Below are positions 44 to 12,450 of a DNA stretch of 12,450 nucleotides, in pieces. The stretch is taken from NCBI GenBank assembly GCA_964453345.1, contig CAYVOC010000040.1:1-12450 (forward strand), written 5' to 3'. Below the pieces are notes generated by a model, which ran no database searches, was not told the DNA's origin, and saw nothing but the letters and a program-made list of their open reading frames with translations. Position 1 is the first letter of the stretch; each line of letters starts with the position of its first letter. A program made the translations under genes and the position numbers. This DNA is from an uncultured Aquificales bacterium (GTDB lineage: Bacteria; Thermosulfidibacterota; Thermosulfidibacteria; Thermosulfidibacterales; Thermosulfidibacteraceae).

Positions 44-604
44 ATGGGCCAAGGGGTTAAAGAGAGGATACTGGAGGCTGCAGAAAAGCTCTTCTTTGAA
101 AGGGGATATGAGGCAACTGGCATAAGGGATATAGCTGCGGCAGCCGGCGTCAACAGCGCCATGATTCACTACTACTTTGGGGGCAAGCGCAATCTTTATA
201 AGGAGCTGCTCTCCTCTCACCTTGATGTTCTTGCCTCCCAGATCTCCCGTATAGAGGCGGAGGATGAGAGGGAGTTCATAAAAAGATTTATGAGGCTTCA
301 CATAGAGATCCTCAGAAAAAGGGGACCCCGTCTTGCTGTTATTATGATGAGGGAGCTGAGCGCCAAGACCGAGGTCGGCAAGGAACTCTTTGACGGTTTT
401 ATGGCGGATCTTGGTGAGGTGCTTGGAAGGGTTATCTCGTCGGGCAAGGAGAAGGGGTTTTTTAGAAGGGATCTGCCGGATAGGCTGATTCTGGTTTTTT
501 TGATTCATGTTGATGCGCTTCTCGCCATAAGGTTTCCGGAAGTTGACTTGGATGAAGCGGTGGAGCTTGCATACACCCTCTTTATGAACGGGGTGGGAGA
601 ATAA
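44..604 (+). CDS. TetR/AcrR family transcriptional regulator
   Basis: 186 aa with an N-terminal TetR HTH signature (ILEAAEKLFFERGYEATGIRDIAAAAGVNSAMIHYYFGGKRNLY). First gene of an efflux operon. Confidence 0.95.
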   Translation: MGQGVKERILEAAEKLFFERGYEATGIRDIAAAAGVNSAMIHYYFGGKRNLYKELLSSHLDVLASQISRIEAEDEREFIKRFMRLHIEILRKRGPRLAVIMMRELSAKTEVGKELFDGFMADLGEVLGRVISSGKEKGFFRRDLPDRLILVFLIHVDALLAIRFPEVDLDEAVELAYTLFMNGVGE

Positions 605-606
605 CC

Positions 607-1860
607 ATGCTTGCGGTGCTGTTCGCGCTTATCTTTTGCTCTGTCTCCTTTTCACAGCAGCTTGGACTCAGGGAATCGGTTATGTATGCGCTGAAGAACA
701 ACCCTGAGATAAGGGCCTATATGGCTCAGGTGAGGATGCAGGCGGGCAGCGCTAAGCTCGTCTCTTCGGAGTTTTTCCCCACCCTTTCGTGGGAGTTTGA
801 TTATACCAGAAGCGGTGGTTCCGGTATTTCCCCTTGGGATCTCTATTCCTACTCCTTTGTGGCCGAGTGGGAGGTCTTTTCCGGCTTTGAGACGCTGAAT
901 CGGTGGAGGGCGGAGAGGATTCTGATTGAGGCCGCAAAGGGCAATCTCAGGAGGGTTATGCTTGATGTCGCCCTTGATGTGGTCAGGTTCTATTCGGAGG
1001 CCCTTGCCGCCCGATACAGGGTCGTTGCCGCCGAGCATTACGTTAAGAGTGCCGAGTATAGCTACCGGCTTGCCCTCGCCAGATACAGGGCCGGTTTGGC
1101 CCCGTGGGCCGATGTTCTTTATGCGAGGTCCAAGTTGAAGGAGGCGCGCTACAAGCTCGTGGACAGCAAGAGGGATTACGGTGTGGCCAAGGGGAATCTG
1201 GCTTCCGTTATGGGGATGGATCCGGGGAAGGTGGAGCAGGTGGAGTTGAGGGAGGTTTCCCCCGTTCTTGCTGATTTTTCCTTCAGATCCCTTGAGGAGA
1301 AAGCCGTTGAGCTTTCCCCCGAGATCAGGGCTGAAAAGAAAAGAATAGATGCTCAGAAAAAAAAGATTGCATCCGTTAAGGGAGAATATATGCCAAAGGT
1401 TTCCCTTTACGGTCAGTGGAAGAGAGAGGACGAGTCCTTGTTTCCGGATGATCGCTCGCTCTGGAGTTTGGGGGTCAGGGTAAAGCTTCCCATCTTCACG
1501 GGTTTTTCCACCCTTAGAAAGATCAGGGTTGAGAGGGCGAGGCTGCTCTCCTTCACCAGTGATCTAAGGAAGGCGGAGCTTGAGGTGAAAAGGAGGCTCT
1601 GGGAAGCGTATCAGGATTATCTGAAGGCCAAGGAGAGGCTTGTGGCCTCCAAGGAATACTGGGAGGCTTCCAAGGAGAGCTACAGGATTATGGAGAAGAA
1701 ATACCGGGTGGGGCTTGCCTCTATTGTGGATCTGGCTTCGGCGCAGGCCGATGTGTATGATGCGGAAAGCTCCTATTATAAATCGCTCACCGATGTGGTC
1801 TTTCATTATTACAGACTTGTGAGGGCTGTGGGAAGGATTCCCGTTGTTGAGGGGTTGTAG
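607..1860 (+). CDS. TolC family outer membrane efflux protein
   Basis: 417 aa with a Sec signal peptide (MLAVLFALIFCSVSFS). Two OEP-like repeats (ALKNNPEI...FPTLS...; AVELSPEI...YMPKVSL...LPIFTGF) and ARYRAGLA / KKYRVGLASIVDL motifs. Confidence 0.93.
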   Translation: MLAVLFALIFCSVSFSQQLGLRESVMYALKNNPEIRAYMAQVRMQAGSAKLVSSEFFPTLSWEFDYTRSGGSGISPWDLYSYSFVAEWEVFSGFETLNRWRAERILIEAAKGNLRRVMLDVALDVVRFYSEALAARYRVVAAEHYVKSAEYSYRLALARYRAGLAPWADVLYARSKLKEARYKLVDSKRDYGVAKGNLASVMGMDPGKVEQVELREVSPVLADFSFRSLEEKAVELSPEIRAEKKRIDAQKKKIASVKGEYMPKVSLYGQWKREDESLFPDDRSLWSLGVRVKLPIFTGFSTLRKIRVERARLLSFTSDLRKAELEVKRRLWEAYQDYLKAKERLVASKEYWEASKESYRIMEKKYRVGLASIVDLASAQADVYDAESSYYKSLTDVVFHYYRLVRAVGRIPVVEGL

Positions 1861-1861
1861 G

Positions 1862-3037
1862 ATGGTGCTGAGGCTTCTTTTGATACTTTTTTTGGTTGCG
1901 GGTTGTTCTAAGGGAAGCAGGGAGCAGTTCAAACCTAAGGGTGAGGCCAGGGTGAAGAGGGGAAGCATCACCCTTGAGGTGACGGCTACCGGTGCGGTGA
2001 AGCCGCAGGTGGGTGCGAGGATAAAGGTGGGGGCAAGGATATCCGGTAAGGTTGAGAGGCTCTTCGTTCAGTCCGGGGATCAGGTTAAGAAGGGACAGCT
2101 CATAGCGATTATAGAGCACAAGGATCTTGAGGCCAGCATGCTCAACAGAAAGCACCGGCTTGAAGCTGCAAGGCAGAAGCTTGAGAAGATAAAGGAGACC
2201 TATCCCCTCAAGATAGAGTATCAGAAAGAGAGCGTTGATAGGGCGAGATCCGAGTATGAGCTTGCGGTGAAGGATTACGAGAGAATCAAGGCTCTGTATG
2301 AGGAGGGGCTTGTTTCCCAGAAGGATATGGATGATGCCCGAAGGGATCTTGAGGTAAAGAGAGCCGCATACTTTGCCGAGAGGGCGAGGCTAAGAGAGTT
2401 GAAGAGGGAGTATGAAAGGCTTCTTAAGGAGGCCAGGGCCGAGTGTGAGGCTGCCCTTCAGGCCTATGAGGAGGCCAGGGTCAGATACAGCTACGCCTTT
2501 ATATACTCGCCCATATCGGGGGTTGTCTCTTCTGTATCCACCCAGCAGGGGGAGACGGTGGTTGCAGGGCTAAACGCTCCCACCTTCATAACCGTGGTGG
2601 ATTTGAACAGGCTGCAGGTGGATGCCTATGTGGATGAGACGGATATAGGGAAGGTGAAGCCGGGCCAGAGGGCCACCTTTGTGGTTGACGCCTACCCGGA
2701 CAAGGTCTTTGAGGGGGTGGTGGATACCATATACCCGGGGGCTATTATCAGGAACAATGTGGTCTTTTACGATGTTAAGATAGATATAAAGACCCCCTAC
2801 TACGGGCTGTTGAAGCCTGAGATGACGGCGGATGTCACTATTGAGGCCGGCAAAAGGGAGAATGTGCTTGTGGTGCCCGCCTCGGCGGTTAAGGTTGGGC
2901 TTGACGGCAGATCCTATGTGATGGTGAAGGAGAAGGGCAGGTGGGTGAAGAGACGGGTAAAGACCGGATGGGAGAGTTCGGGCAAGGTTGAGATTGTTTC
3001 GGGACTGAAGGAAGGGGAGGTGGTTGCCCTTTGGTGA
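1862..3037 (+). CDS. MacA-like periplasmic adaptor (membrane fusion protein), predicted lipoprotein
   Basis: Barrel-sandwich/lipoyl halves (VGARISGKVERLFVQSGDQVKKGQLIA; IYSPISGVVSSVSTQQGETV), long coiled coil, VDETDIGKVKPGQ, LKPEMTADV and VEIVSGLKEGEVV. Start moved from 1844 to ATG 1862 (GAGGGG RBS at 1849-1854), which gives the lipobox LVAG|C. Confidence 0.93.
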   Translation: MVLRLLLILFLVAGCSKGSREQFKPKGEARVKRGSITLEVTATGAVKPQVGARIKVGARISGKVERLFVQSGDQVKKGQLIAIIEHKDLEASMLNRKHRLEAARQKLEKIKETYPLKIEYQKESVDRARSEYELAVKDYERIKALYEEGLVSQKDMDDARRDLEVKRAAYFAERARLRELKREYERLLKEARAECEAALQAYEEARVRYSYAFIYSPISGVVSSVSTQQGETVVAGLNAPTFITVVDLNRLQVDAYVDETDIGKVKPGQRATFVVDAYPDKVFEGVVDTIYPGAIIRNNVVFYDVKIDIKTPYYGLLKPEMTADVTIEAGKRENVLVVPASAVKVGLDGRSYVMVKEKGRWVKRRVKTGWESSGKVEIVSGLKEGEVVALW

Positions 3038-3699
3038 TAGTGAGGATGAGGGGGATCAGGAAGGTTTACAGCATGGGCTCTGAGAGCTTGGAGGTGCTAA
3101 AGGGGATCGATTTTGAGGTGAAAAAGGGGGATTTTATCGCCATAATGGGGCCTTCAGGTGAGGGAAAAAGCACCCTCATGAACATTCTTGGGTGTTTGGA
3201 TAGACCCACTTCAGGCGAGTATCTCTTTGAAGGGGTGAATGTGCTCTCCCTTTCGGACAGGGAGCTTTCCAGGCTGAGAAACCGCAGGATAGGGTTCGTC
3301 TTTCAGCAGTTTCACCTTATCCCCTGGGCGACGGCCCTTGAGAATGTGCTTTTGCCCCTTGTGTATAGGGATGGGATCACGGAAGAGGGCGTGAAGAGAG
3401 CCAAGAGTCTTCTTGAGAGGCTGGGACTCGGGCACAGGATGGATTTTAAGCCGTCCCAGCTTTCTGGTGGGCAGCAGCAGAGGGTTGCCATAGCCCGCGC
3501 CCTTGTGGGGGAACCCTCCTTGATACTTGCCGATGAGCCCACGGGCAATCTCGATGCTGCATCCAGCAAAGAGGTCATGGATATATTTTCGGAACTTAAC
3601 AGGGAGGGAACCACCATAGTGATGACCACCCATGACCCCGAGACCGCAGGCTACGCTAAGACTGTCAAGCAGTTGAGAAATGGCAGGTTCGTTGAATAG
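3031..3699 (+). CDS. ABC transporter ATP-binding protein (MacB/LolD-type, stand-alone NBD)
   Basis: Walker [11 protein letters not shown]-loop FVFQQF, signature [15 protein letters not shown], Walker B/D-loop [11 protein letters not shown] and H-loop TTHD. Start is TTG 3031 or GTG 3034 (GTGA overlap with the upstream stop). Confidence 0.95.
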
Positions 3700-4897
3700 G
3701 GTAAGGAGTGTCTTCAGGGAGGCTACCTCGGAGCTTTTCTCTTCAAAGTTGAGCCTTTTTTTTATGTCCTTCGGGCTTGTGGTGGGGATATGTGCAATAA
3801 CCGCCATATATTCTGTGGGGAATGGAGCCAAGATCACCGTCTATCGCATCCTTGAAAATCTCAACTTCGGGTCCAATGCCTTTTTGATTCTGGCGGGGGG
3901 AGGCAAGTTCTTCGGCCCTTCCGCCACCAGAATGGACAGATTCAAAATGAGGGATGTTCGGGATATTAAGAAGTTTGACTTTGTTGTGGATGTTTCCCCC
4001 GTTCAGCTCGGTATGATGGAGGTGTCTTCCGCCAAGGAGGCCGGGATAACCAGGGTGTTGGGGGTGTTTCCGGTTTACGCAACTGTGAACAACTGGACGG
4101 TGGCCAAGGGGAGGTTCATAAGCGATGCGGATATAAGGCTGAAGAGGAAGGTATGCGTTCTCGGGTATGAGACTGCGGAGCGGCTTTTCGGTAAGCCGGT
4201 TCTCGGCAAGAAGATAAGGGTCAACGGGGTTGCCCTTGAGGTGGTGGGAATCCTTGAGAGAAAGGGAGTGATAGGCAGTTACCATCTTGATGAGAGGGTG
4301 CTGATTCCCTTCACCACGGCAAAGGATAGAATCTTCAACAAGGACTGGATCGATGCGGCAAAGGTTCTTTTGAAGAAGGATGTTGATTTTGTGAAGGCCA
4401 AGCGGCTCATAAGGGAGCTGCTCAGAAGGAACCACAAACTTTTGCCCAACGAGGTGGACGATTTCAGGATTATAACCCCGGATCAGATAATGCGTTTTCT
4501 GACCAAAGCCACCACCACGCTTACCGCACTGCTTGTGGCCATATCCCTCATCACCCTCGTTGTGGCAGGCGTCATCATAATGAACATCATGTATGCGGTT
4601 GTGGAGGAGAAGAAAAAGATAATAGCCCTGAGGAAGGCCTACGGTGCCACCAACGGGGACATTGTTATGCACTATCTTTTCATCACGGGAATGGTGGCGC
4701 TTGTGGGCTTTGTTGCCGGGTATGGGTTGGGGAACGCCGTAACCCTTCTTGTTGCAAGCCTAAGTCCCATAGATGGCTACTACAGCCTCAGTGTGGGTGC
4801 TGTGGGGTTGCTGCTGTCTTTTGTCACCTCCGTGGGCTTCGGTATTGTGCCGGCCAGATCCGCTGCGAAGCTTCCACCTGCGGAGATCCTTAAATGA
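3680..4897 (+). CDS. ABC transporter permease (MacB/FtsX family), paralogue 1
   Basis: 405 aa with an N-terminal TM helix and a large periplasmic domain (GRFISDAD...VCVLG...IPFTTA). Three C-terminal TM helices with IMNIMYAVVEEKKKIIALRKAYGA and PARSAAKLPPAEIL. Confidence 0.92.
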   Translation: MAGSLNRVRSVFREATSELFSSKLSLFFMSFGLVVGICAITAIYSVGNGAKITVYRILENLNFGSNAFLILAGGGKFFGPSATRMDRFKMRDVRDIKKFDFVVDVSPVQLGMMEVSSAKEAGITRVLGVFPVYATVNNWTVAKGRFISDADIRLKRKVCVLGYETAERLFGKPVLGKKIRVNGVALEVVGILERKGVIGSYHLDERVLIPFTTAKDRIFNKDWIDAAKVLLKKDVDFVKAKRLIRELLRRNHKLLPNEVDDFRIITPDQIMRFLTKATTTLTALLVAISLITLVVAGVIIMNIMYAVVEEKKKIIALRKAYGATNGDIVMHYLFITGMVALVGFVAGYGLGNAVTLLVASLSPIDGYYSLSVGAVGLLLSFVTSVGFGIVPARSAAKLPPAEILK

Positions 4898-6108
4898 AAG
4901 GTTACGCCTTCAGGCTGAGATACGGGGCTCTCTTTTACAAAAAGAGGAGGCTTTTTCTTTCCATTCTGGGCGTGGTTATCGGGGTTGCGGCCATAGTGGT
5001 GATGGTTTCCGTGTCCGAGGGATCAAAGGCGAAGCTGATGAGGGAGTTTGAGACCTTCTCCCCGGATACCCTGACGGTTGTTGCCGGAAGAGTCCGCCTC
5101 AGGGGAGGGCGCCCCATAACCACCGAAAAATACACTACATTGAAACTGGAGGATGCGTGGTCCCTCGAGGGCATATTCGGGGTGGTCAGGGTGGCGCCTG
5201 TGTATGAGGGCAGTGTGGTTGCCGAGTATGGCGAGAACAGCATGAGGGTGACCGTTGTGGGAAGCACCCCTCAAATTTTCGCCATAAGAAGGTATAAAAT
5301 GGCCTACGGCAGGATCTTCACCTATGCAGAGGCCATGAAGAACGGGAAGGTGGCGGTTATAGGGTATAAGGTCTGTCAGGAGCTGTTTGGCTGCAGGGAT
5401 CCCGTAGGGAAGAGGATCAGAATAAGGAAGCTGCCCTTTCTCGTTGTGGGGGTCATGGAGAAGATGGGAACCGATGCGAGCGGCAGGGATCTGGACAGCC
5501 AGATCATAATACCTATAAGTTCTGCCACCAACAGGGTTTTCAATGTTGATCACATATCCTCCATCTTTGTTCAGGTGGCCTCTGAACTCTTTCTGCAGGA
5601 TGTCTCCGATAATGTGGCCAGAATACTTAGAAAGAGGCACGGGATAAGAAAGGGCTTCCCTGATGATTTTTCTGTGCTCAAGGCCGAGGAGATTTTGAAA
5701 AACAAAGAGCGATCGGCCATGATCTTTTCCATCTTCACAATAAGCATAGCTTTTATCTCAATAATTGTTGGGTCCTTCGGGGTTATGGCGGTTATGATCC
5801 TTTCTGTCAGGGAGAGAACGGTGGAGGTGGGCCTGAGGAAGGCCCTGGGAGCCACGGAATTTGATATAGTTAAACAGTTCCTCCAGGAGTCAGCTGTTAT
5901 AACTCTGTTTGGTGGAATTGCAGGATCGGTGCTGGGGATAATGATGAGTTTTGTTGCATCAAAATTATTTAAGTATCCCTTTGTGCTGTCTCCCATCTAT
6001 CTTTTGCTTTCCCTTCTTATTGTTGTTGCCCTTGGAATTGTTGCGGGAATATACCCCGCCAGGAAGGCTTCAAAGGTTGATCCCGTGGTCAGCTTGCGGG
6101 GAAGTTGA
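4894..6108 (+). CDS. ABC transporter permease (MacB/FtsX family), paralogue 2
   Basis: 404 aa. LSILGVVIGVAAIVVMVSV, SVRERTVEVGLRKALGA and GIYPARKASKVDPVVSLR are canonical MacB motifs. ATGA overlap with the previous gene. Confidence 0.94.
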   Translation: MKGYAFRLRYGALFYKKRRLFLSILGVVIGVAAIVVMVSVSEGSKAKLMREFETFSPDTLTVVAGRVRLRGGRPITTEKYTTLKLEDAWSLEGIFGVVRVAPVYEGSVVAEYGENSMRVTVVGSTPQIFAIRRYKMAYGRIFTYAEAMKNGKVAVIGYKVCQELFGCRDPVGKRIRIRKLPFLVVGVMEKMGTDASGRDLDSQIIIPISSATNRVFNVDHISSIFVQVASELFLQDVSDNVARILRKRHGIRKGFPDDFSVLKAEEILKNKERSAMIFSIFTISIAFISIIVGSFGVMAVMILSVRERTVEVGLRKALGATEFDIVKQFLQESAVITLFGGIAGSVLGIMMSFVASKLFKYPFVLSPIYLLLSLLIVVALGIVAGIYPARKASKVDPVVSLRGS

Positions 6109-6133
6109 AAAATTTTCCCATCTCCTTTATAGG
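6105..6133 (+). promoter_or_regulatory. Possible internal sigma70-type promoter for the lactate permease gene (TTGAAA-N17-TATAGG)
   Basis: TTGAAA at 6105-6110 and TATAGG at 6128-6133 are separated by exactly 17 bp, in the AT-rich gap upstream of the permease. Confidence 0.4.
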
Positions 6134-6166
6134 GTTATCCAAAATTTTGTGGAGGGGAGGAGATGG
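6118..6166 (+). promoter_or_regulatory. Potential anti-RBS RNA stem sequestering the Shine-Dalgarno and start codon of the permease
   Basis: CCATCTCCT (6118-6126) is the exact reverse complement of AGGAGATGG (6158-6166, which includes ATG 6163). The stem extends by two G-U pairs. Confidence 0.45.
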
Positions 6167-7746
6167 ATTTCGTTCTGGCAATTTTACCCATACTCATTGT
6201 CCTTATTGGTATGCTTATCTTTTCCCGTTCAGGGACCTTTATGGCTGTTGTGGGCTGGGTGTTGTCTGTGATCGTTGCGGTGACCTATTTTAAAACACCG
6301 CTTAATGTCGCCTTAGGTGCCAGTGCCATGGGAATCATAAAGGCACTGGGGATAACCTTGGCCGTTATTTTCACCATGTTCTTGATCTTTTTGATGAAGG
6401 AGACGGGTGCTCTGGCCAGGATAATCCAGTATGTCCAGGGAATCGCCAGAACCAAGGAGGAGCAGGCCCTTTTCGTTGGCATGGGCTTTGGTTCTCTGGC
6501 GACGGCCCTTGGAATGGTCACCCCGGCCATGTTTCCCCCCATATTTTTGATGCTCGGCTTTTCTCCCATAGCCGCAATCGGTATCTCGGTTCTGTGCTAC
6601 GATCCGCTGACCTCCTTCGCCCTCTTCTCCATCCCGGTTACCCTGCCGGCCAAGGTTGCATGGGGTCCCTTTGGGATAAGGCCTCCCGGTATATCCAACC
6701 TGAATGAGTTTATCTGGGTCTTCACCCATAAGATAACCGTCTTTCTCCCGCCGATCTCCGTTTGCTTCGCCCTGCTTATGCTATACACCATAGAGGGAAA
6801 GGAGTCTGTTAAGAGGCACTGGAAGGCTGCGGTTATATCGGGTCTGGTTCTTTCCCTTACCGCCTATGTGATTGCGGCCTTCAGGATACTGCCGGTCGAG
6901 GTTATTGGTATAGTGTCCGGTCTGGTCACCATGCTTGTGGTCTATCTTATGTTTTCCAGGAACGGCAAAAAGGAGGAGGTTCCGGGTTCAGGCTGGGATG
7001 AGGAGCTGATCGTTGCCATGTCTCCCCTGATTCTGTTGGTGGTCTTCTCGCTTATAGTGAACATCCCCGGCATAAAGAAGTATCTTGCGGGTGTGCTGGG
7101 GCAGGCGGAGGTTATCAGGGTTATTGCCAACAAGAAGGCGGATCTCAACGTCTTCGCCAATGTCTGGTTCTGGATTCTGGTTACATCCCTCATCTCCATA
7201 GTCATTCTCAGGCCCACCTCCGAGCAGCTCAGCAACACCTTTAAGGTCTGGTTCCAGAGGATATGGGGACCCTTCATAGCCTACTCCCTCTTTTTCGCAG
7301 TTGCCTTTGTTATGGCCTGGTCCGCCATGGAGGTGGTGAACGGCAAGCTCGTTCCCGGTCCCCACTTTGCCGATTACAACATGGACAGGATCATCGGCGT
7401 CACCCTTGCAAAGGTTTTCGGCAAATTCTACGCTTTCCTGGCTCCCTTCTTGGGGCTTTTCGGTGCCTTTGTGGGAGGAAGCGAGACCGCCTCAAATGTG
7501 CTCTTTGCCAAGATACAGTTTGAGGCCACCAAGATGACCTTGGGGCCTCAGGCCTTCATGTGGATATTTGCGGCCCATGCCGTGGGTGGAGGTATAGCGA
7601 GCGCCATAACCCCCTCTAAGATCACCAACGCTGCAGCCACCATAGGCGTGAAGGGCTCTGAGGAGGCGAAGCTGCTAAAGGTAGTCTTGTTGCCGGTTCT
7701 GCTCATGTGCGTTATAGTAGGTGCGCTGGTGCTGGTTTTCGTTTAA
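6163..7746 (+). CDS. lctP: L-lactate permease (LctP/LldP family), divergent
   Basis: 527 aa and very hydrophobic. N-terminal LAILPILIVLIGM and C-terminal family motifs (APFLGLFGAFVGGSETASNVLFAKIQ; AAHAVGGGIASAITPSKITNAAATIGVKGSE). Strong GGAGG RBS. Substrate not certain. Confidence 0.8.
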   Translation: MDFVLAILPILIVLIGMLIFSRSGTFMAVVGWVLSVIVAVTYFKTPLNVALGASAMGIIKALGITLAVIFTMFLIFLMKETGALARIIQYVQGIARTKEEQALFVGMGFGSLATALGMVTPAMFPPIFLMLGFSPIAAIGISVLCYDPLTSFALFSIPVTLPAKVAWGPFGIRPPGISNLNEFIWVFTHKITVFLPPISVCFALLMLYTIEGKESVKRHWKAAVISGLVLSLTAYVIAAFRILPVEVIGIVSGLVTMLVVYLMFSRNGKKEEVPGSGWDEELIVAMSPLILLVVFSLIVNIPGIKKYLAGVLGQAEVIRVIANKKADLNVFANVWFWILVTSLISIVILRPTSEQLSNTFKVWFQRIWGPFIAYSLFFAVAFVMAWSAMEVVNGKLVPGPHFADYNMDRIIGVTLAKVFGKFYAFLAPFLGLFGAFVGGSETASNVLFAKIQFEATKMTLGPQAFMWIFAAHAVGGGIASAITPSKITNAAATIGVKGSEEAKLLKVVLLPVLLMCVIVGALVLVFV

Positions 7747-7770: not shown

Positions 7771-7787
7771 TTTACTGAGGGGGTTTG

Positions 7788-8780
7788 ATGTTTGATGGAA
7801 AGGTTGTTCTGGTTACGGGAGGGACGGGTTCCTTTGGCAGGAAGTTCATAAGGTATGTGCTTGAGAACTATGAGCCTGAAAAGGTCATAGTATACTCCAG
7901 AGACGAATACAAACAGTATATAATGCAGCAGGAGCTTGGGGACTTCGCCCCCAGGCTCCGTTTTTTTATAGGTGATGTTCGGGATAAGGAGCGCCTCTAC
8001 AGGGCCTTTGTTGGAGTTGACATAGTTATTCACGCTGCCGCTTTGAAGCATGTGCCCTTGATGGAATACAATCCCATAGAGGCCATCAAGACCAACATCC
8101 ACGGTGCCATAAATGTGATTGACGCTGCCTTGGACAGGGGGGTTGAGAAGGTGATCGCCCTTTCAACGGATAAGGCGGTCAATCCGGTGAACCTCTACGG
8201 TGCCACAAAGCTTGTCTCCGATAAGCTTTTCGTTTCCGCAAACGCCTATGCAGGCAAGGGGCGCACCCGCTTCGCCGTTGTCAGATACGGGAACGTTGCG
8301 GGAAGCAGGGGATCGGTTATCCCCTTTTTCATGAGGCTTGTGAAGAATGGAGCCAGGGAGCTTCCCATAACCGATTTCAGAATGACCCGCTTCTGGATAA
8401 CCCTCGATGAGGGGGTGAGGCTCGTTGAGAGGGCTGTCAGAGAAGCCAAGGGCGGTGAGATATATGTGGCGAAGATCCCCTCTTTCAGGGTGGTTGATCT
8501 TGCAAGGGCCATATGCCCTGACTGTCGGTTGAAGGAGGTGGGGATAAGGGAGGGGGAGAAGCTTCACGAGGTTATGATAGCCGAGGAGGACGCAAGAACA
8601 ACCTACGAGTATGAGGATCACTTTATCATCTACCCCCAGCATCGCTGGTGGAACTGGGATGTGAAGCCCGGGGGCAGAAAGGTTCCCGAGGGTTTCAGAT
8701 ACTCCTCGGACAAGAACGACAGATGGCTTGGGGTGGAGGAGCTGAGGGAGCTGCTCGGCAAGATAGATGTGGTGATGTAG
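7788..8780 (+). CDS. pseB: UDP-N-acetylglucosamine 4,6-dehydratase (inverting), PseB
   Basis: GGTGSFG Rossmann motif, SRDEYKQ, HAAALKHVP, LSTDKA, YGATK catalytic motif, RYGNVAGSRGSVIPFF, MTRFWITL and GIREGEKLHE. ATG 7788 follows a GAGGGGG RBS (TTG 7785 is an alternative start). Confidence 0.93.
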   Translation: MFDGKVVLVTGGTGSFGRKFIRYVLENYEPEKVIVYSRDEYKQYIMQQELGDFAPRLRFFIGDVRDKERLYRAFVGVDIVIHAAALKHVPLMEYNPIEAIKTNIHGAINVIDAALDRGVEKVIALSTDKAVNPVNLYGATKLVSDKLFVSANAYAGKGRTRFAVVRYGNVAGSRGSVIPFFMRLVKNGARELPITDFRMTRFWITLDEGVRLVERAVREAKGGEIYVAKIPSFRVVDLARAICPDCRLKEVGIREGEKLHEVMIAEEDARTTYEYEDHFIIYPQHRWWNWDVKPGGRKVPEGFRYSSDKNDRWLGVEELRELLGKIDVVM

Positions 8781-9923
8781 ATGAGGTTTATCCCCTACGG
8801 CTGGCATTACATAGATGATGAGGACATTGATGCGGTCGTTGAGGTGCTGCGATCCGGCTACCTGACCCAGGGGCCAAAGCTTTCCGAGTTTGAGCGTGCC
8901 CTCGCCCAATACTGCGGTGCGAGGTTCGCCGTCTGCTTTTCAAGCGGAACAGCCGCTCTGCATGCGGCCTACTTCGCCCTCGGACTTGGAGAAGGAGATA
9001 AATTTATAACCACCCCCATTACCTTTGCCGCCACCGCCAATGCCGGGCTGTATCTGGGGGCAAGACCGATCTTTGTGGATGTTGAGCCGGATACGGGAAA
9101 CATACATCCCGATCTTATAGAGGGCGCCTTGACCGATGATTGCCGCCTGATAAGCGTTGTGCACTATGCCGGGCATCCCGTTGATATGGAGAGGATCTGG
9201 AGCATCGCCCGGAGGTATAATCTGAAGGTGGTTGAGGATGCCTGCCATGCCCTTGGCGCCCGCTATAGGGGTGAGCCTGTGGGATGCTGCCGGTATTCCG
9301 ATGCTGCTGTATTCAGCTTCCACCCGGTGAAGCACATCACCACCGCCGAGGGAGGGGCAGTTCTCACCAACGACGAAGAGGTTTATGAGAAACTGCTGCT
9401 TTTCAGAAACCACGGGATAACCAGAAATACAAAAAGATTCCTCTATCCCAGCCACGGCCCCTGGTATTACGAGATGCAGTTTTTAGGCTACAACTACAGG
9501 ATGAATGAGCTTTCCGCGGCCCTTGGAATCAGCCAGCTGAGGAAGCTGGATCTCTTTGTGAGAAGAAGAAGGGAAATAGCCTCCTATTACAGCGAAGCCC
9601 TTTCCGATTTGAAGGGGGTTATGCTTCCCGTGGAAAGGGACTACGCGAAGTCTTCCTATCACCTCTACGTCTTGAGGCTGAAGGGTGATTTTGCGCACAG
9701 AAAAGGGGAGATCTTCTCCAGGCTCAGGGAGATGGGGCTTGGTGTCCAGGTGCACTACATCCCCGTTTATTTGCATCCCCACTATCGCAGACTCGGGTAT
9801 ACACCCGGTCTGTGCCCTGCTGCTGAGGACTTTTACAGAAGGGTCCTTTCCATTCCCATATACCCTGCCATGAGTGATGATGATCTTTTTTACGTGGTGG
9901 ATTGCTTGAGAAAGGTATTATAA
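8781..9923 (+). CDS. pseC: UDP-4-amino-4,6-dideoxy-N-acetyl-beta-L-altrosamine transaminase, PseC (DegT/DnrJ/EryC1/StrS PLP family)
   Basis: IPYG...IDDEDI, LTQGP, EDACHALGA, SFHPVKHITTAEGG (PLP lysine), FRNHGI, GYNYRM and GVQVHYIPVY. Directly abuts pseB. Confidence 0.92.
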   Translation: MRFIPYGWHYIDDEDIDAVVEVLRSGYLTQGPKLSEFERALAQYCGARFAVCFSSGTAALHAAYFALGLGEGDKFITTPITFAATANAGLYLGARPIFVDVEPDTGNIHPDLIEGALTDDCRLISVVHYAGHPVDMERIWSIARRYNLKVVEDACHALGARYRGEPVGCCRYSDAAVFSFHPVKHITTAEGGAVLTNDEEVYEKLLLFRNHGITRNTKRFLYPSHGPWYYEMQFLGYNYRMNELSAALGISQLRKLDLFVRRRREIASYYSEALSDLKGVMLPVERDYAKSSYHLYVLRLKGDFAHRKGEIFSRLREMGLGVQVHYIPVYLHPHYRRLGYTPGLCPAAEDFYRRVLSIPIYPAMSDDDLFYVVDCLRKVL

Positions 9924-9927
9924 CGAA

Positions 9928-9943
9928 CGGCATCCCTTTTGCT
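9928..9943 (+). promoter_or_regulatory. Sigma54 (RpoN) -24/-12 promoter
   Basis: CGGCATCCCTTTTGCT matches the TGGCAC-N5-TTGCW consensus, with GG (9929-9930) and GC (9941-9942) exactly 10 bp apart. It lies in the 59-bp gap, 39 bp before the next ATG. Confidence 0.7.
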
Positions 9944-9982
9944 AAGGCATATCTGTGAGGAATCCATCTGGAGGTGTGAGGG

Positions 9983-10960
9983 ATGGTGGATCTTGTCCCC
10001 TATAGAAAGGGTGTTTATGCAAGTTTCCCCACCTTCGTGGAGCACAATGGATACGTTTACATCTACTACAGGGAGGGGAGAAAAAGCGTCTATCAGGTGC
10101 ACGGTCTCTTCGGCAAGGTGAAGCGCATAAAGGTTTCTTCTTCCGAGTTTATAAAGATGCTTGAGGGGGAGCCTGCAGGGGAGTTTGATGTCAGGGTGGT
10201 CTTCTCCGACAACGACAACGAGCTCGACGCCATAGTGTCAAAGCTTGATGACAATCTTTACTCCCTCTGCACCAGGGTCTCTCTCGTGGGCAAGAGAAAC
10301 GACTGCTATGTCTCCTTCAACAGCGAGCCCGAGTTTAAAGAGAGGCAGCTGGTAAGAATAAGGGGCTTGAGGATAGATGCCTTTTACGGCAAGGCCTTCA
10401 GGTCCCCCCATGGCTATATCTTTCCTGCATACGGATGGTTTGAAAGAGACGGTGAGCAGAGGCCCCTGCTTCTTGTGACGGACACCGAAAAATGGGATGT
10501 GCTCTCATACCTTCCCACCCGCATCAACGGCAACAGACTGAATGAGAGCAGCGTGGTCTATCATCAGGGCGTATGGCACATATTCATGAGGGAGGATGAT
10601 CCGCCCTACGGAATATGGTGGTCCCATTCGGCGGATCTGGTGCACTGGAGCAGTCCCCAGAAGCTCTTTTCAAAGGCCCACGCTCCCATGGCCTGTGTGG
10701 TGAACAACGAGATCCTTCTGGCCTTCAGATATCTGCTCGGCAGAAACAGGCAGGCCGTTGCCTACACCTATCCCTTCTCGTCAAGGATCATACAGATAGC
10801 CGACACCTACTTGGGAGACATGTTCGACGGCGGGTATGCGGATATCGGGGTGGTCAACGGAAGGCTCATCGTGGTATACTACTGGGGCAACACAAGCGGA
10901 AGCCCAACGATCAGATGCAGGATCATAGGCGCCGTGGAGGAGATGGAAAAGGTTGCTTAG
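9983..10960 (+). CDS. Sialidase-like (BNR/Asp-box) beta-propeller protein, no signal peptide; function unknown
   Basis: 325 aa, beta-strand rich, with a GGAGGTG RBS at 9970-9976. Motifs: YASFPTF...YYREG...H; NESSVV...HIFMRE; degenerate Asp-box SHSADLVHWS; C-terminal DGGYADIGVVNGRLIVVYY. This resembles the layout of sialidase/BNR_2-type propellers. Confidence 0.7.
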   Translation: MVDLVPYRKGVYASFPTFVEHNGYVYIYYREGRKSVYQVHGLFGKVKRIKVSSSEFIKMLEGEPAGEFDVRVVFSDNDNELDAIVSKLDDNLYSLCTRVSLVGKRNDCYVSFNSEPEFKERQLVRIRGLRIDAFYGKAFRSPHGYIFPAYGWFERDGEQRPLLLVTDTEKWDVLSYLPTRINGNRLNESSVVYHQGVWHIFMREDDPPYGIWWSHSADLVHWSSPQKLFSKAHAPMACVVNNEILLAFRYLLGRNRQAVAYTYPFSSRIIQIADTYLGDMFDGGYADIGVVNGRLIVVYYWGNTSGSPTIRCRIIGAVEEMEKVA

Positions 10961-10981
10961 AAAGCTTGTCGGGGGATGAGA

Positions 10982-12450
10982 ATGAGGGCTGTGGCCTTTG
11001 TCCCTGTGAGACTCACATCAACCCGGCTTCCCGAAAAGCACCTGAAGTTTATAGGAGATAGAACCCTCTTTTCCTGGGTCATTTCGAGGCTCAAGGCCTG
11101 CAGAAACCTTGATGAAATAGTCGTGTGCGTTCCCGATGAGCCGGAAAGCGAAAAGCTGAAGCCTTTGTGTGATAAAGAGGGAGTTGAGCTTTTCATCTAC
11201 GAGGGCGATGTGAACGATGTTGTGGGAAGGCTCACCACGGCGGCGAAAAGATACAATGCGGACATATGCGTTCTTGCAAGCGGCGACTGTCCCCTGTTAA
11301 GCCCCTCAACCATAGATATGCTTGTAGGCTTCCTGAAGGAGCATCCGGATGTGGATATCGCCTACATCGAACCCCTTGACGGAAAGCCGCCCATACACGA
11401 GGGGATATCCGTTGCAAGAAGGCATGTCTGGGAGCTTGCGGATAGATACTCGGATACCCCGGAGCTGCGGGAGCATCAGTTCCCCGTTCTGGGGGTTTAC
11501 CCTGAAAAATTCGCGCACCTTAAGCGGGCGGGACTCAGAGACAAGGAGATCTTCTACAGGCTGAAGCACAGGATCTCGGTGGACACGCCGAGGGATCTTG
11601 AGTTCATGAACGAGTGCTACAGAAGGCTCAAAGAGAAGGGAAAAGAGTTCACCCTTGAGAATGTGATAGAGCTTTTGCAGGAGAACCCCGATCTTATGAA
11701 GATAAACGCCCATGTTCATCAGAAGGGGCTTCACGAAAAGAGCTATAAGGTCCTTTTTGTGGTGAGCGCCGTTGGGGACTACGGATACGGCAACCTTGTG
11801 AGAAGCCTTGAGATCGCGGACAGGTTGGTGAGCATGGGGGTGGGCGTAAGATTTTTTGTCTTTGACCATGAGGCAAAGAGAATGTGTGAGGAGAGGGCCT
11901 TTCATGCAGAGATCATAGGGGAGCTTTCGGAACTCGCTTCAAAGGCGGCCAGCTACCACATGGTGATCTTTGATCTAAACAGAGACATAGCCCTTGAGGA
12001 AGGGCTGGTTGAGCGCGTCAAAGAGTATGGCAAGGTTGTGGTTATAGACAACACCAGCCCCGGTGCTCTGAAGGCGGATCTGGTGATAATTCCCACTGCC
12101 CACTATACGGGAGAGGATCGCAATAATCTGATCTGGGGGCCGGAGTATGTGGTTGTATCGTCCGATGTGATGAAGGCCAAGAATAAAAATGTTCCCAAGC
12201 GGGACGTGGTTCTTGCAAGGGTTGATGAAGAATACCAGGATTGCGTGGAGCTTTTGTGGAAGAAGGTTGAGTTTGTCCGGGGTTTTGGCAGGGATTTTGC
12301 CGAAAGAATCAAGGGGGCAAGACTTTGCGTTTTCCATTTAGGACTTTCCTGCTATGAAGCCCTCTATCTTGGCACGCCCGTAGAGATTATCCCGAGAACC
12401 CCTGAAGAGCTGCCCGAAATAGAGGCCTTCTACAGGTTCGCCCATTCAGG
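10982..12450 (+). CDS. Fusion of SpsF/PseF-type cytidylyltransferase and PseG/SpsG-like GT-B domain (3'-partial; not in ORF track)
   Basis: My translation is open from ATG 10976/10982 to the window end. The N-terminal ~250 aa read MRAVAFVPVRLTSTRLPEKHLK...GDVNDVVGR...SGDCPLL...REHQFP...RISVDTPRDLEF...ENPDLMKINAHVHQK (SpsF-like). From ~11740: KVLFVVSAVGDYGYGNLVRSLEIA...VIFD...VVVID...DLVIIP...GPEYVVV...GLSCYEALYLGTP (PseG/SpsG-like). Confidence 0.88.
   Translation, partial: MRAVAFVPVRLTSTRLPEKHLKFIGDRTLFSWVISRLKACRNLDEIVVCVPDEPESEKLKPLCDKEGVELFIYEGDVNDVVGRLTTAAKRYNADICVLASGDCPLLSPSTIDMLVGFLKEHPDVDIAYIEPLDGKPPIHEGISVARRHVWELADRYSDTPELREHQFPVLGVYPEKFAHLKRAGLRDKEIFYRLKHRISVDTPRDLEFMNECYRRLKEKGKEFTLENVIELLQENPDLMKINAHVHQKGLHEKSYKVLFVVSAVGDYGYGNLVRSLEIADRLVSMGVGVRFFVFDHEAKRMCEERAFHAEIIGELSELASKAASYHMVIFDLNRDIALEEGLVERVKEYGKVVVIDNTSPGALKADLVIIPTAHYTGEDRNNLIWGPEYVVVSSDVMKAKNKNVPKRDVVLARVDEEYQDCVELLWKKVEFVRGFGRDFAERIKGARLCVFHLGLSCYEALYLGTPVEIIPRTPEELPEIEAFYRFAHS

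Follow-up and report, generated by a model that had tools for sequence, protein, structure and literature searches.

A sialidase-type propeller gene next to a fused cytidylyltransferase/PseG-like gene in a pseudaminic-acid-type cluster of an uncultured Aquificales bacterium

Gene content and organization of the locus

The stretch of DNA analyzed here, hereafter called the window, has a length of 12,450 nucleotides and represents the whole of contig C40 (CAYVOC010000040.1, assembly GCA_964453345.1) of an uncultured Aquificales bacterium of the Thermosulfidibacteraceae, whose genome (G000; 1.5 Mb in 64 contigs) is 99.92% complete. Four consecutive genes transcribed in the same direction occupy its right part (Table 1): pseB, pseC, a gene for a six-bladed propeller of the sialidase superfamily, and a gene in which an SpsF-type cytidylyltransferase is fused to a PseG-like domain. 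Pseudaminic acid (Pse) is a sugar carried on flagella, pili and capsules in many bacteria, and the segment is best explained as the downstream half of an island for the glycosylation of flagellin with a sugar of this type. A first-pass annotation of the window had described the last two genes as a closely spaced, candidate variant nonulosonic-acid module under its own sigma-54-type motif; both genes are as it described them and do belong to such a module. The gap between them is 15 nt or 21 nt, depending on whether the fused gene starts at the ATG at 10976 or at the one at 10982; the latter matches the start (MRAVAF) of P0039, a protein of 513 residues with 97% identity. The fused gene runs off the end of C40, 22 residues short of P0039, and a tblastn search of the other contigs for these 22 residues, and for the start of a GH57-like gene that is described below, revealed nothing beyond the window.

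Genomes of relatives are designated G002 and onward and their loci L004 and onward; G002 and G003 are relatives from the same genus that have the region, and the related contigs include those of uncultured Aquificales metagenome-assembled genomes (MAGs). Protein families were searched in Pfam and NCBIfam, the latter with its curated cut-offs, and fold searches were performed with Foldseek and VIA-align on AlphaFold2 (AF2) models. The propeller family is represented by alignment A3 (also A1), the fused gene by alignment A2 (12 sequences), and a bridging tier of Dfer_1899-like proteins by alignment A4. Fourteen loci, consisting of the window and 13 further loci, were obtained with the propeller as the query.

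The stop codon of pseC and the ATG of the propeller gene (at coordinate 9983) are separated by 59 nt, and this gap contains a sigma-54-type -24/-12 motif (GGCATCCCTTTTGCT) with the GG at 9929-30 and the GC at 9941-42 in a GG-N10-GC arrangement. Compared with the consensus TGGCAC-N5-TTGCW, the window sequence (cGGCATcccttTTGCT) keeps the GG/GC spacing and has mismatches at the first T and the sixth C. In the same gap of the two genus relatives the motif is kept (2/2), reading TGGCAGatgatTTGCTA in G002 and TGGCATacaggTTGCTA in G003, and the remaining gap sequence differs. The separate promoter motif of the first-pass annotation is thereby confirmed as a sigma-54-type motif found at the same place in all three genomes, and the sigma-54 gene rpoN is present in G000 (305 bits, over the cut-off). 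A strict form of the motif, TGGCA[CT]N5TTGCT, occurs at five sites of the genome, compared with 1.7 +/- 1.4 sites (maximum 6) in simulated sequences, and each of the five is located 2-37 nt 5' of an open reading frame (ORF): those for FlgD, a rod protein of the FlgE/F/G type, a small rod protein, Maf, and one protein without a family match. The window site starts with CGGCAT and hence falls outside these five, so that its case is built on its position, its conservation in the genus and the hook, rod and Maf genes behind the strict sites, which it resembles. No terminator-like site was found between pseC and the propeller gene, and read-through from pseBC is therefore also possible.

Two of the strict sites deserve a description. 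The Maf-type flagellin glycosyltransferase (657 aa; PF01973 143 bits, Maf_flag10_N) is encoded on the minus strand of a 3.6 kb contig (C63:659-2632, L058), with the site TGGCACagaatTTGCT 37 nt ahead of the gene. The protein without a family match in Pfam has 284 residues (C10:34015-34869, minus strand, L053), is preceded by its site at a distance of 2 nt, and possibly also belongs to the flagellar genes under sigma-54.

Table 1. Features of the window, and locations of split transketolase halves in other loci
Feature	Location	Strand	Basis or remark
Sigma-54-type -24/-12 motif, GGCATcccttTTGCT	9929..9943	+	Read in the sequence; 39 nt before the ATG
Ribosome-binding site, GGAGGTG	9970-9976	+	
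Propeller, 325 aa, sialidase superfamily, six-bladed, pseudaminidase-like	9983..10960	+	AF2 model, VIA-align, invariant residues; stop at 10958-10960
SpsF-type cytidylyltransferase domain	10976..11725 (start 10976 or 10982)	+	PF02348 62.3 bits; 6oew
PseG-like GT-B domain, Asn for the catalytic His	11726..12448	+	Cut by the contig end
pseB, UDP-GlcNAc 4,6-dehydratase (inverting)	7785..8780	+	TIGR03589 528.9 bits (cut-off 407.75); PF02719 1.1e-103
pseC, aminotransferase	8781..9923	+	TIGR03588 517.6 bits (cut-off 423.5); stop at 9921-9923
TetR regulator	44-604		Left part of the window
Outer-membrane efflux protein	607-1860		Left part of the window
Four further efflux-like ORFs	1844-6108		By appearance
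LctP-family permease	6163-7746		
Transketolase halves, L016	1-800 and 2326-3144		
Transketolase halves, L023	2242-3066 and 4594-5535		
Transketolase halves, L039	5235-6044 and 7572-8123		
Transketolase halves, C55 (G000)	3041-3826 and 5200-6051		

Fold, active-site residues and neighbours of the propeller

The propeller protein matches no family of Pfam (at an E-value of 0.1) or NCBIfam, which agrees with the unexplained hydrolase fold that had been ascribed to it, and it is by its fold a sialidase-type propeller. Its AF2 model (pLDDT 94.5, pTM 0.92) retrieved with Foldseek the protein Dfer_1899 of Dyadobacter fermentans (5hx0) as the first match, followed by sialidases, with the pseudaminidase of Pseudomonas aeruginosa (2w38) at a TM score of 0.71. 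When residues 1-322 were aligned with VIA-align, the Z-score was 32.7 for 5hx0 (root-mean-square deviation (rmsd) 2.8, 304 residues aligned), 30.2 for C. perfringens NanH (8um0), and 29.4 for 2w38 (rmsd 3.4, 292 residues aligned). With Z-scores of 29-33 to many sialidases, the protein displays the six-bladed beta-propeller of the GH33-like superfamily. It has no Pfam match to the BNR (Asp-box) repeats, of which just degenerate remnants, such as SADLVHW, are visible by eye. Dfer_1899, a BNR_2 protein without an assigned function that is the best structural match and belongs to the bridging family A4, differs from the window propeller in having Asp-box repeats and insertions.

The family is small. 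In a set of 5.8 billion proteins, 38 relatives were found at an E-value of 1e-3 or better, a few of which are named 'sialidase family protein' or 'exo-alpha-sialidase'. When 1.84 billion representatives were searched with a profile, 52 proteins were retrieved at 1e-30, 98 at 1e-10 and 467 at 0.001. In every member the conserved core begins as early as residue 12, too close to the N-terminus for a signal peptide to fit, and the propeller is hence predicted to be a cytoplasmic protein.

Residues Y12, R30, H40, D82, R98, R121, E188, R203, R249 and Y285 are invariant in 16/16 members, including four metagenomic ones that are 23-26% identical. Their counterparts in the sialidases were located through A4, which is comprised of 41 proteins from the weaker tier of representatives, 38 of them with a match to PF13088 (BNR_2). 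The profiles of A3 and A4 align with a probability of 100 and an E-value of 9.6e-50 in hhalign, and the A4 profile in turn finds 5hx0 (5.6e-65), 2w38 (1.4e-27) and the Porphyromonas gingivalis sialidase 8gn6 (1.9e-26). By this route R30, R203 and R249 fall on the columns of the 8gn6 arginine triad, which holds the C1 carboxylate, and the nucleophile pair is found in Y285 (GGYxD), aligned to AYSDM, and E188 (LNE), aligned to DEA. The triad and the Glu/Tyr pair would be residues that bind and cleave a 2-keto-3-deoxy acid sugar and not a UDP-hexose. At the position of the acid/base Asp the family has the invariant His40 instead, aligned to residue 219 of 8gn6, which is an Asp according to the title ('D219A mutant') of entry 8t26 for the same enzyme. 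Via the same alignment H40 falls on His45, and Y12 on Tyr21, of 2w38; these two are reportedly the active-site residues by which the Pseudomonas pseudaminidase differs from sialidases.

GH33 exo-sialidases, such as NanH (8UM0) and PG_0352 (8GN6/8T26), match over the whole length of the fold (Z 29-30), with the arginine triad and the Glu/Tyr pair aligned, but the propeller has no match to the Pfam BNR models and a His in place of their acid/base Asp (D219 in PG_0352). PA2794 of P. aeruginosa (2W38, 3H6J) is likewise six-bladed and shares the YR...H and NE(T/S)S...R columns in the profile alignment at an identity of about 15%. It has 438 residues and an extra C-terminal part (residues 12-335 align), whereas the window protein is the propeller alone; furthermore, unlike PA2794, the window propeller is located in a biosynthetic/flagellar cluster, lacks a leader peptide and has no Pfam BNR/Asp-box match. 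According to three reports, crystallography and docking led to the reclassification of PA2794 as a pseudaminidase acting on pseudaminic acid (10.1101/319418, PMC3658417, PMC4599014). For the window protein, Pse is likely to be the substrate rather than N-acetylneuraminic acid (Neu5Ac).

The most consistent feature of the propeller's surroundings is a cytidylyltransferase gene. In eight loci from at least four lineages, an SpsF-type cytidylyltransferase is the next downstream gene on the same strand: the window, L006 (G003), L027 (Heliobacterium mobile), L049 (a metagenome), and L086, L096, L097 and L098 (G056, G055, G070 and G069, all of the Desulfurella order). The two genes are separated by up to 22 nt or overlap by as much as 31 nt. 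In seven more loci (L023, L029, L043, L045, L046, L047 and L085) the cytidylyltransferase is located one to three genes away. Several metagenome contigs display the order pseB, pseC, propeller, synthase, fused gene; since these contigs were retrieved with the fused gene as the query, they do not count as independent evidence for co-occurrence. Among the 14 propeller-queried loci, eight contain a nonulosonic-acid gene. Links to the flagellum are also found: in G013 the propeller is positioned beside fliF, fliG, fliH, fliI and a sigma-54 activator, and Maf is present in four of the five propeller genomes tested, adjacent to the propeller in a delta-proteobacterial MAG and approximately 6 kb away in H. 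mobile. In Candidatus Magnetocorallium (L026) the gene before the propeller (7848-9983) encodes a protein of 711 residues in which an aminoglycoside-3-N-acetyltransferase-like domain is joined to DUF4910, DUF2172 and a winged helix; the gene after the propeller encodes a methyltransferase.

The fused gene and the rest of the pathway

The N-terminal domain of the fused protein (residues 1-250) matches 6oew of Leptospira borgpetersenii in the PDB with an E-value of 1.2e-24 and a Z-score of 26.6. It is of the SpsF type, to which B. subtilis SpsF and Caulobacter FlmC also belong, and not of the PseF/NeuA type: TIGR03584 (PseF) is absent among the 11 NCBIfam matches of the fused protein and has no match in G000 at 1e-10. 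This type replaces PseF in Pse-type clusters, and the window protein differs from 6oew in that a PseG-like domain is fused behind it. A different fusion is found in the delta-proteobacterial MAG (L028:15414-17468, minus strand), where an SpsF-type cytidylyltransferase is joined to a class-III aminotransferase in a protein of 684 residues.

The second domain has the GT-B fold of PseG (model pLDDT 91.7 for the fused protein): its residues 255-488 have their best domain match in Campylobacter jejuni PseG, at a Z-score of 19.4 for 3hbn (rmsd 2.7, 222 residues aligned) and 18.9 for 3hbm, tied with MurG at 19.0. The N-terminal strand-loop-helix motif of C. jejuni PseG (3HBM/3HBN) is shared, but the fused domain sits behind a cytidylyltransferase and carries an Asn for the His of the GxGH motif. 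The PseG family model TIGR03590 gave 26.3 bits with the fused protein and 24.6 bits in the genome search, far below its cut-off of 153.55. His17 of PseG reportedly has a catalytic role; in the motif GxGH(x)2R this position is Asn in 12/12 sequences of A2, within the invariant pattern (Y/F)G(Y/F)GNLxR (12/12). The His-type PseG of B. salitolerans supports this placement: its GTGH aligns over GFGH of 3hbm, and its His aligns over the Asn of the fused family (hhalign probability 88.9, E-value 2.4e-6). In a survey of the motif, Asn was present in 10 of 11 fused proteins (L044 being without a pattern match) and His in 5/5 standalone PseG-like proteins; among genomes of the Desulfurella order, Asn is found in the one fused protein of full length (G058) and His in the standalone proteins (8/8). 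The crippled PseG of the first-pass annotation was hence right as to the His-to-Asn change, but not as to the state of the domain. Many further residues are invariant, for example in IDN and PTAH, and because of these and the confident GT-B model the domain is judged, from comparison of its sequences, to be remodelled and not decayed. It would probably still carry out a UDP-sugar-processing step, in a variant pathway without PseH, rather than being a dead relic.

A scan of metagenomes with the fused protein of the window retrieved no relative, and one with alignment A2 retrieved 13 loci. The N- and C-terminal halves of a split transketolase flank the fused gene in G002, Desulfonauticus and several metagenome contigs (Table 1), and may point to a sugar with a modified chain. 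G000 itself has such halves in C55, around a gap of 100 N; a second copy of the fused gene was considered there, and none was present between the halves.

The remaining genes of the pathway are partly found on another contig of G000, C24, at the start of which a GH57-like gene, truncated at its 5' end, precedes a gene for a NeuB-type synthase (TIGR03586 228-232 bits, TIGR03569 275 bits, both below the cut-offs). The genes of G002 are arranged as ATP-grasp, GH57-like, synthase, pseB, pseC and propeller, with the fused gene at the end of another contig. The GH57-like gene encodes a protein of approximately 660 residues whose N-terminal domain is of the GH57 type (PF03065, 76 bits); it was seen at C24:3-1847 (L004), L012:1604-3580 and L017:2-913. 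In G000 and G002 it directly precedes the NeuB-type synthase, and in G009 the fused gene. For PseH the best match in G000 has 29 bits against a cut-off of 93, and for PseG none exceeds 25 bits, so that neither was found in this nearly complete genome. A single cluster in G058 (L095, C11:61500-75000) brings together pseB, pseC, an Asn-type fused gene, the propeller and ATP-grasp-like genes, three ORFs of which (386, 409 and 392 aa) match the G002 ATP-grasp in BLAST; no PseH-type gene was seen there by BLAST. ATP-grasp-like genes without PseH hint at a different N-acyl group on the sugar of L095.

Possible roles of the propeller and its partner

The reading that we tentatively favour is that the propeller is a cytoplasmic pseudaminic-acid glycosidase and that its neighbour re-activates the product with CMP, for salvage or editing. 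The propeller would act as a retaining glycosidase on Pse or a close derivative and free the sugar from an intracellular Pse glycoside, candidates for which are the glycan of flagellin, products of turnover and activated sugar that has been damaged. The SpsF-type domain would then re-activate the free Pse with CTP, and the pair would supply Maf through a loop of salvage or editing, inside a sigma-54 flagellar glycosylation set. Release followed by re-activation is suggested by the GH33-like machinery, by the His shared with PA2794 and by the cytidylyltransferase as the next gene in eight loci; this propeller-cytidylyltransferase order is the strongest pattern found, and the release-and-re-activation pair that the first-pass annotation had named as its alternative would fit it. 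The fold, the residue pattern, the gene order, the distribution and the conserved motif are observations; the substrate, the direction of flux, the activity of the promoter and the role of the Asn-type domain are inferred. The more specific proposal of a dedicated intracellular loop for the recycling or repair of Pse, which would draw on flagellin glycans, turnover fragments or heat-damaged activated sugar, have CMP-Pse re-made at once by the neighbour and be switched on by sigma-54 together with hook and rod genes, is considered doubtful.

Several observations weigh against the glycosidase reading or parts of it. We know of no Pse glycoside, and of no import route for one, in the cytoplasm of this organism. 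No nonulosonic-acid gene is found within the locus in six of the 14 propeller-queried loci (L024, L025, L026, L031, L032 and L033); NeuB is encoded elsewhere in the genome for 5/5 such loci tested, but also in 9/14 control genomes, and its presence is a weak point because NeuB is common. As to the active site, a direct search of the PDB with the propeller family profile (A1, A3) by hmmsearch retrieved no sialidase, the E-values of 0.036-2 being at chance level and the best matches (0.036-0.2) being unrelated GH130 propellers, for which reason the link to the sialidases was drawn through A4. The residue mapping accordingly consists of printed alignments read in series over two profile steps, in sequence and not in three dimensions, and the family-specific R98, R121 and D82 might indicate that the substrate carries a phosphate, as CMP-Pse does. 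As to the promoter, the window motif is a consensus match from which activity can be predicted at most. The loose pattern GGCA[CT]N5TTGC[AT] occurs at 11 sites in the genome, compared with 13.4 +/- 3.4 expected from 30 first-order Markov simulations, and as it is no commoner than chance, genome-wide enrichment was dropped as an argument. A sigma-70-like match (TTAGCA-17-TATAAT, 10 of 12 positions) covers the same bases on the minus strand (9945..9917) and would read antisense into pseC. Outside the genus, a sigma-54-type motif is missing upstream of the propeller in 13 of the 14 other propeller loci, and L049 has a weak one.

In the first-pass annotation the propeller had been proposed as a non-orthologous replacement for PseG. 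On this reading it would hydrolyse the UDP-linked trideoxy-altrose because the fused domain has lost the catalytic His. Phylogenetic profiling supports this within the window's own order and not beyond it. Among 41 relatives, ten have PseB over the cut-off; in the six of them with a propeller (G000, G002, G003, G009, G011 and G013) no TIGR03590 match exceeds 36 bits. The four without it (G004, G006, G007 and G036) have matches of, in descending order, 311.9, 173.1, 150.8 and 115.3 bits. An intact pseG was likewise not found in G000, and every Asn-variant fused gene that could be judged (in the window, G002, G003, G009, L023, L043, L045, L046, L047 and L095) shares a locus or genome with a propeller, which is the best support for a replacement; the additional invariant residues R98 and R121 could bind a diphosphate. 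However, the local exclusion amounts to two genera versus three and represents few independent events, and PseH is missing from the same six genomes and found in two of the four others, so that the whole cluster type, and not one gene, differs. Outside the order, the distribution of the propeller is not tied to the state of PseG: five of nine propeller genomes have PseG over the cut-off (G046 290.7, G045 272.9, G047 186.8, G041 155.1 and G042 298.3 bits), and two more have matches of 106.5 and 80.8 bits. PseG and the propeller share one locus in G046 (B. salitolerans) and G045 (the delta-proteobacterial MAG), the propeller of the former being surrounded by PseC, PseH (116 bits), PseG (290.7 bits) and PseI (505.5 bits). 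In the Desulfurella order, where the propeller is present in 19/28 genomes (with one copy containing in-frame stops and some cut by contig ends), seven propeller genomes have a standalone PseG-like gene of the GLGH type, and a His-bearing PseG and a propeller thus occur together in at least 12 genomes. The copy at G072:C39:48335-49272 has several in-frame stops and is probably a pseudogene. Moreover, the Tyr/Glu nucleophile and the arginine triad suit sugars with a C1 carboxylate, which the PseG substrate lacks, and the Asn-type domain is itself strongly conserved. The replacement is for the most part refuted and survives as a minority reading, to which we attach little probability.

A substrate that carries CMP would agree with the tight and conserved pairing with the cytidylyltransferase, with the invariant and family-specific R98 and R121, which could bind its phosphate, and with Maf being adjacent to the propeller in one locus and approximately 6 kb away in another. 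On CMP-Pse the propeller could keep the pool small as a hydrolase, repair the 2,3-dehydro breakdown product as a hydratase, or act alongside Maf as a retaining transferase ('trans-pseudaminidase'). CMP-linked sugars are heat-labile, and many carriers are from hot habitats by their names (Aquificales MAGs, Desulfurella, Desulfonauticus), but ordinary Bacillus species are among the carriers as well. A hydrolase encoded just upstream of the maker of its own substrate would create a futile cycle, and GH33 enzymes are not known to use CMP-sugars; we regard action on CMP-Pse as unlikely, more so than the sigma-54-switched loop and less so than the PseG replacement. Least probable of all is that the propeller is a non-catalytic protein for sugar binding or scaffolding, or one unrelated to nonulosonic acids with an accidental neighbourhood. 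The six loci without a nonulosonic-acid gene and the absence of a known function for Dfer_1899, the nearest solved relative, would fit such a role, but a full catalytic constellation that is invariant among members with 23-26% identity, and the same gene order in at least four distant lineages, argue against it.

The glycosidase reading has a parallel in Helicobacter pylori, for which deglycosylation of flagellin by HP0518/Csd6 has been reported, with the pseudaminidase activity described as remaining to be shown (PMC4599014). The idea, that a cell trims Pse off its own flagellin, is the same, and the fold, which is NTF2-like in HP0518/Csd6, is unrelated. In the literature consulted, without its supplementary files, we found no account of a sialidase-type gene located within a Pse cluster: the Geobacillus glycosylation-island paper (PMC5109656) makes no mention of sialidase, neuraminidase, BNR, glycoside hydrolase, transketolase or SpsF, nor does PMC13317340 of sialidase, BNR, propeller or SpsF. 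What is new at the locus is the setting, both cellular and genomic, of a GH33-like and pseudaminidase-like family, and beside it the Asn-type variant of PseG.

Enzymes that remove Pse are, to our knowledge, almost unknown, and the sole structurally studied one has no settled biological role. The present propellers constitute a small family associated with Pse-type clusters and flagellar genes, and most of all with a single type of cytidylyltransferase. If they cleave Pse, its members could serve as tools for glycan analysis, and cells would appear to edit or recycle a costly nine-carbon sugar. Should the recycling loop be real, no earlier member of the sialidase family would have had a housekeeping role inside the cell that makes the sugar, and a pseudaminidase would for the first time be placed in a physiological context. 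Because it occurs in genomes that lack PseH, the Asn-type PseG-like domain also suggests that a Pse-like sugar is made there by a variant route.

The remaining genes of the window (44-7746), none of which appears tied to the propeller or the fused gene, encode regulatory, efflux and permease functions (Table 1).

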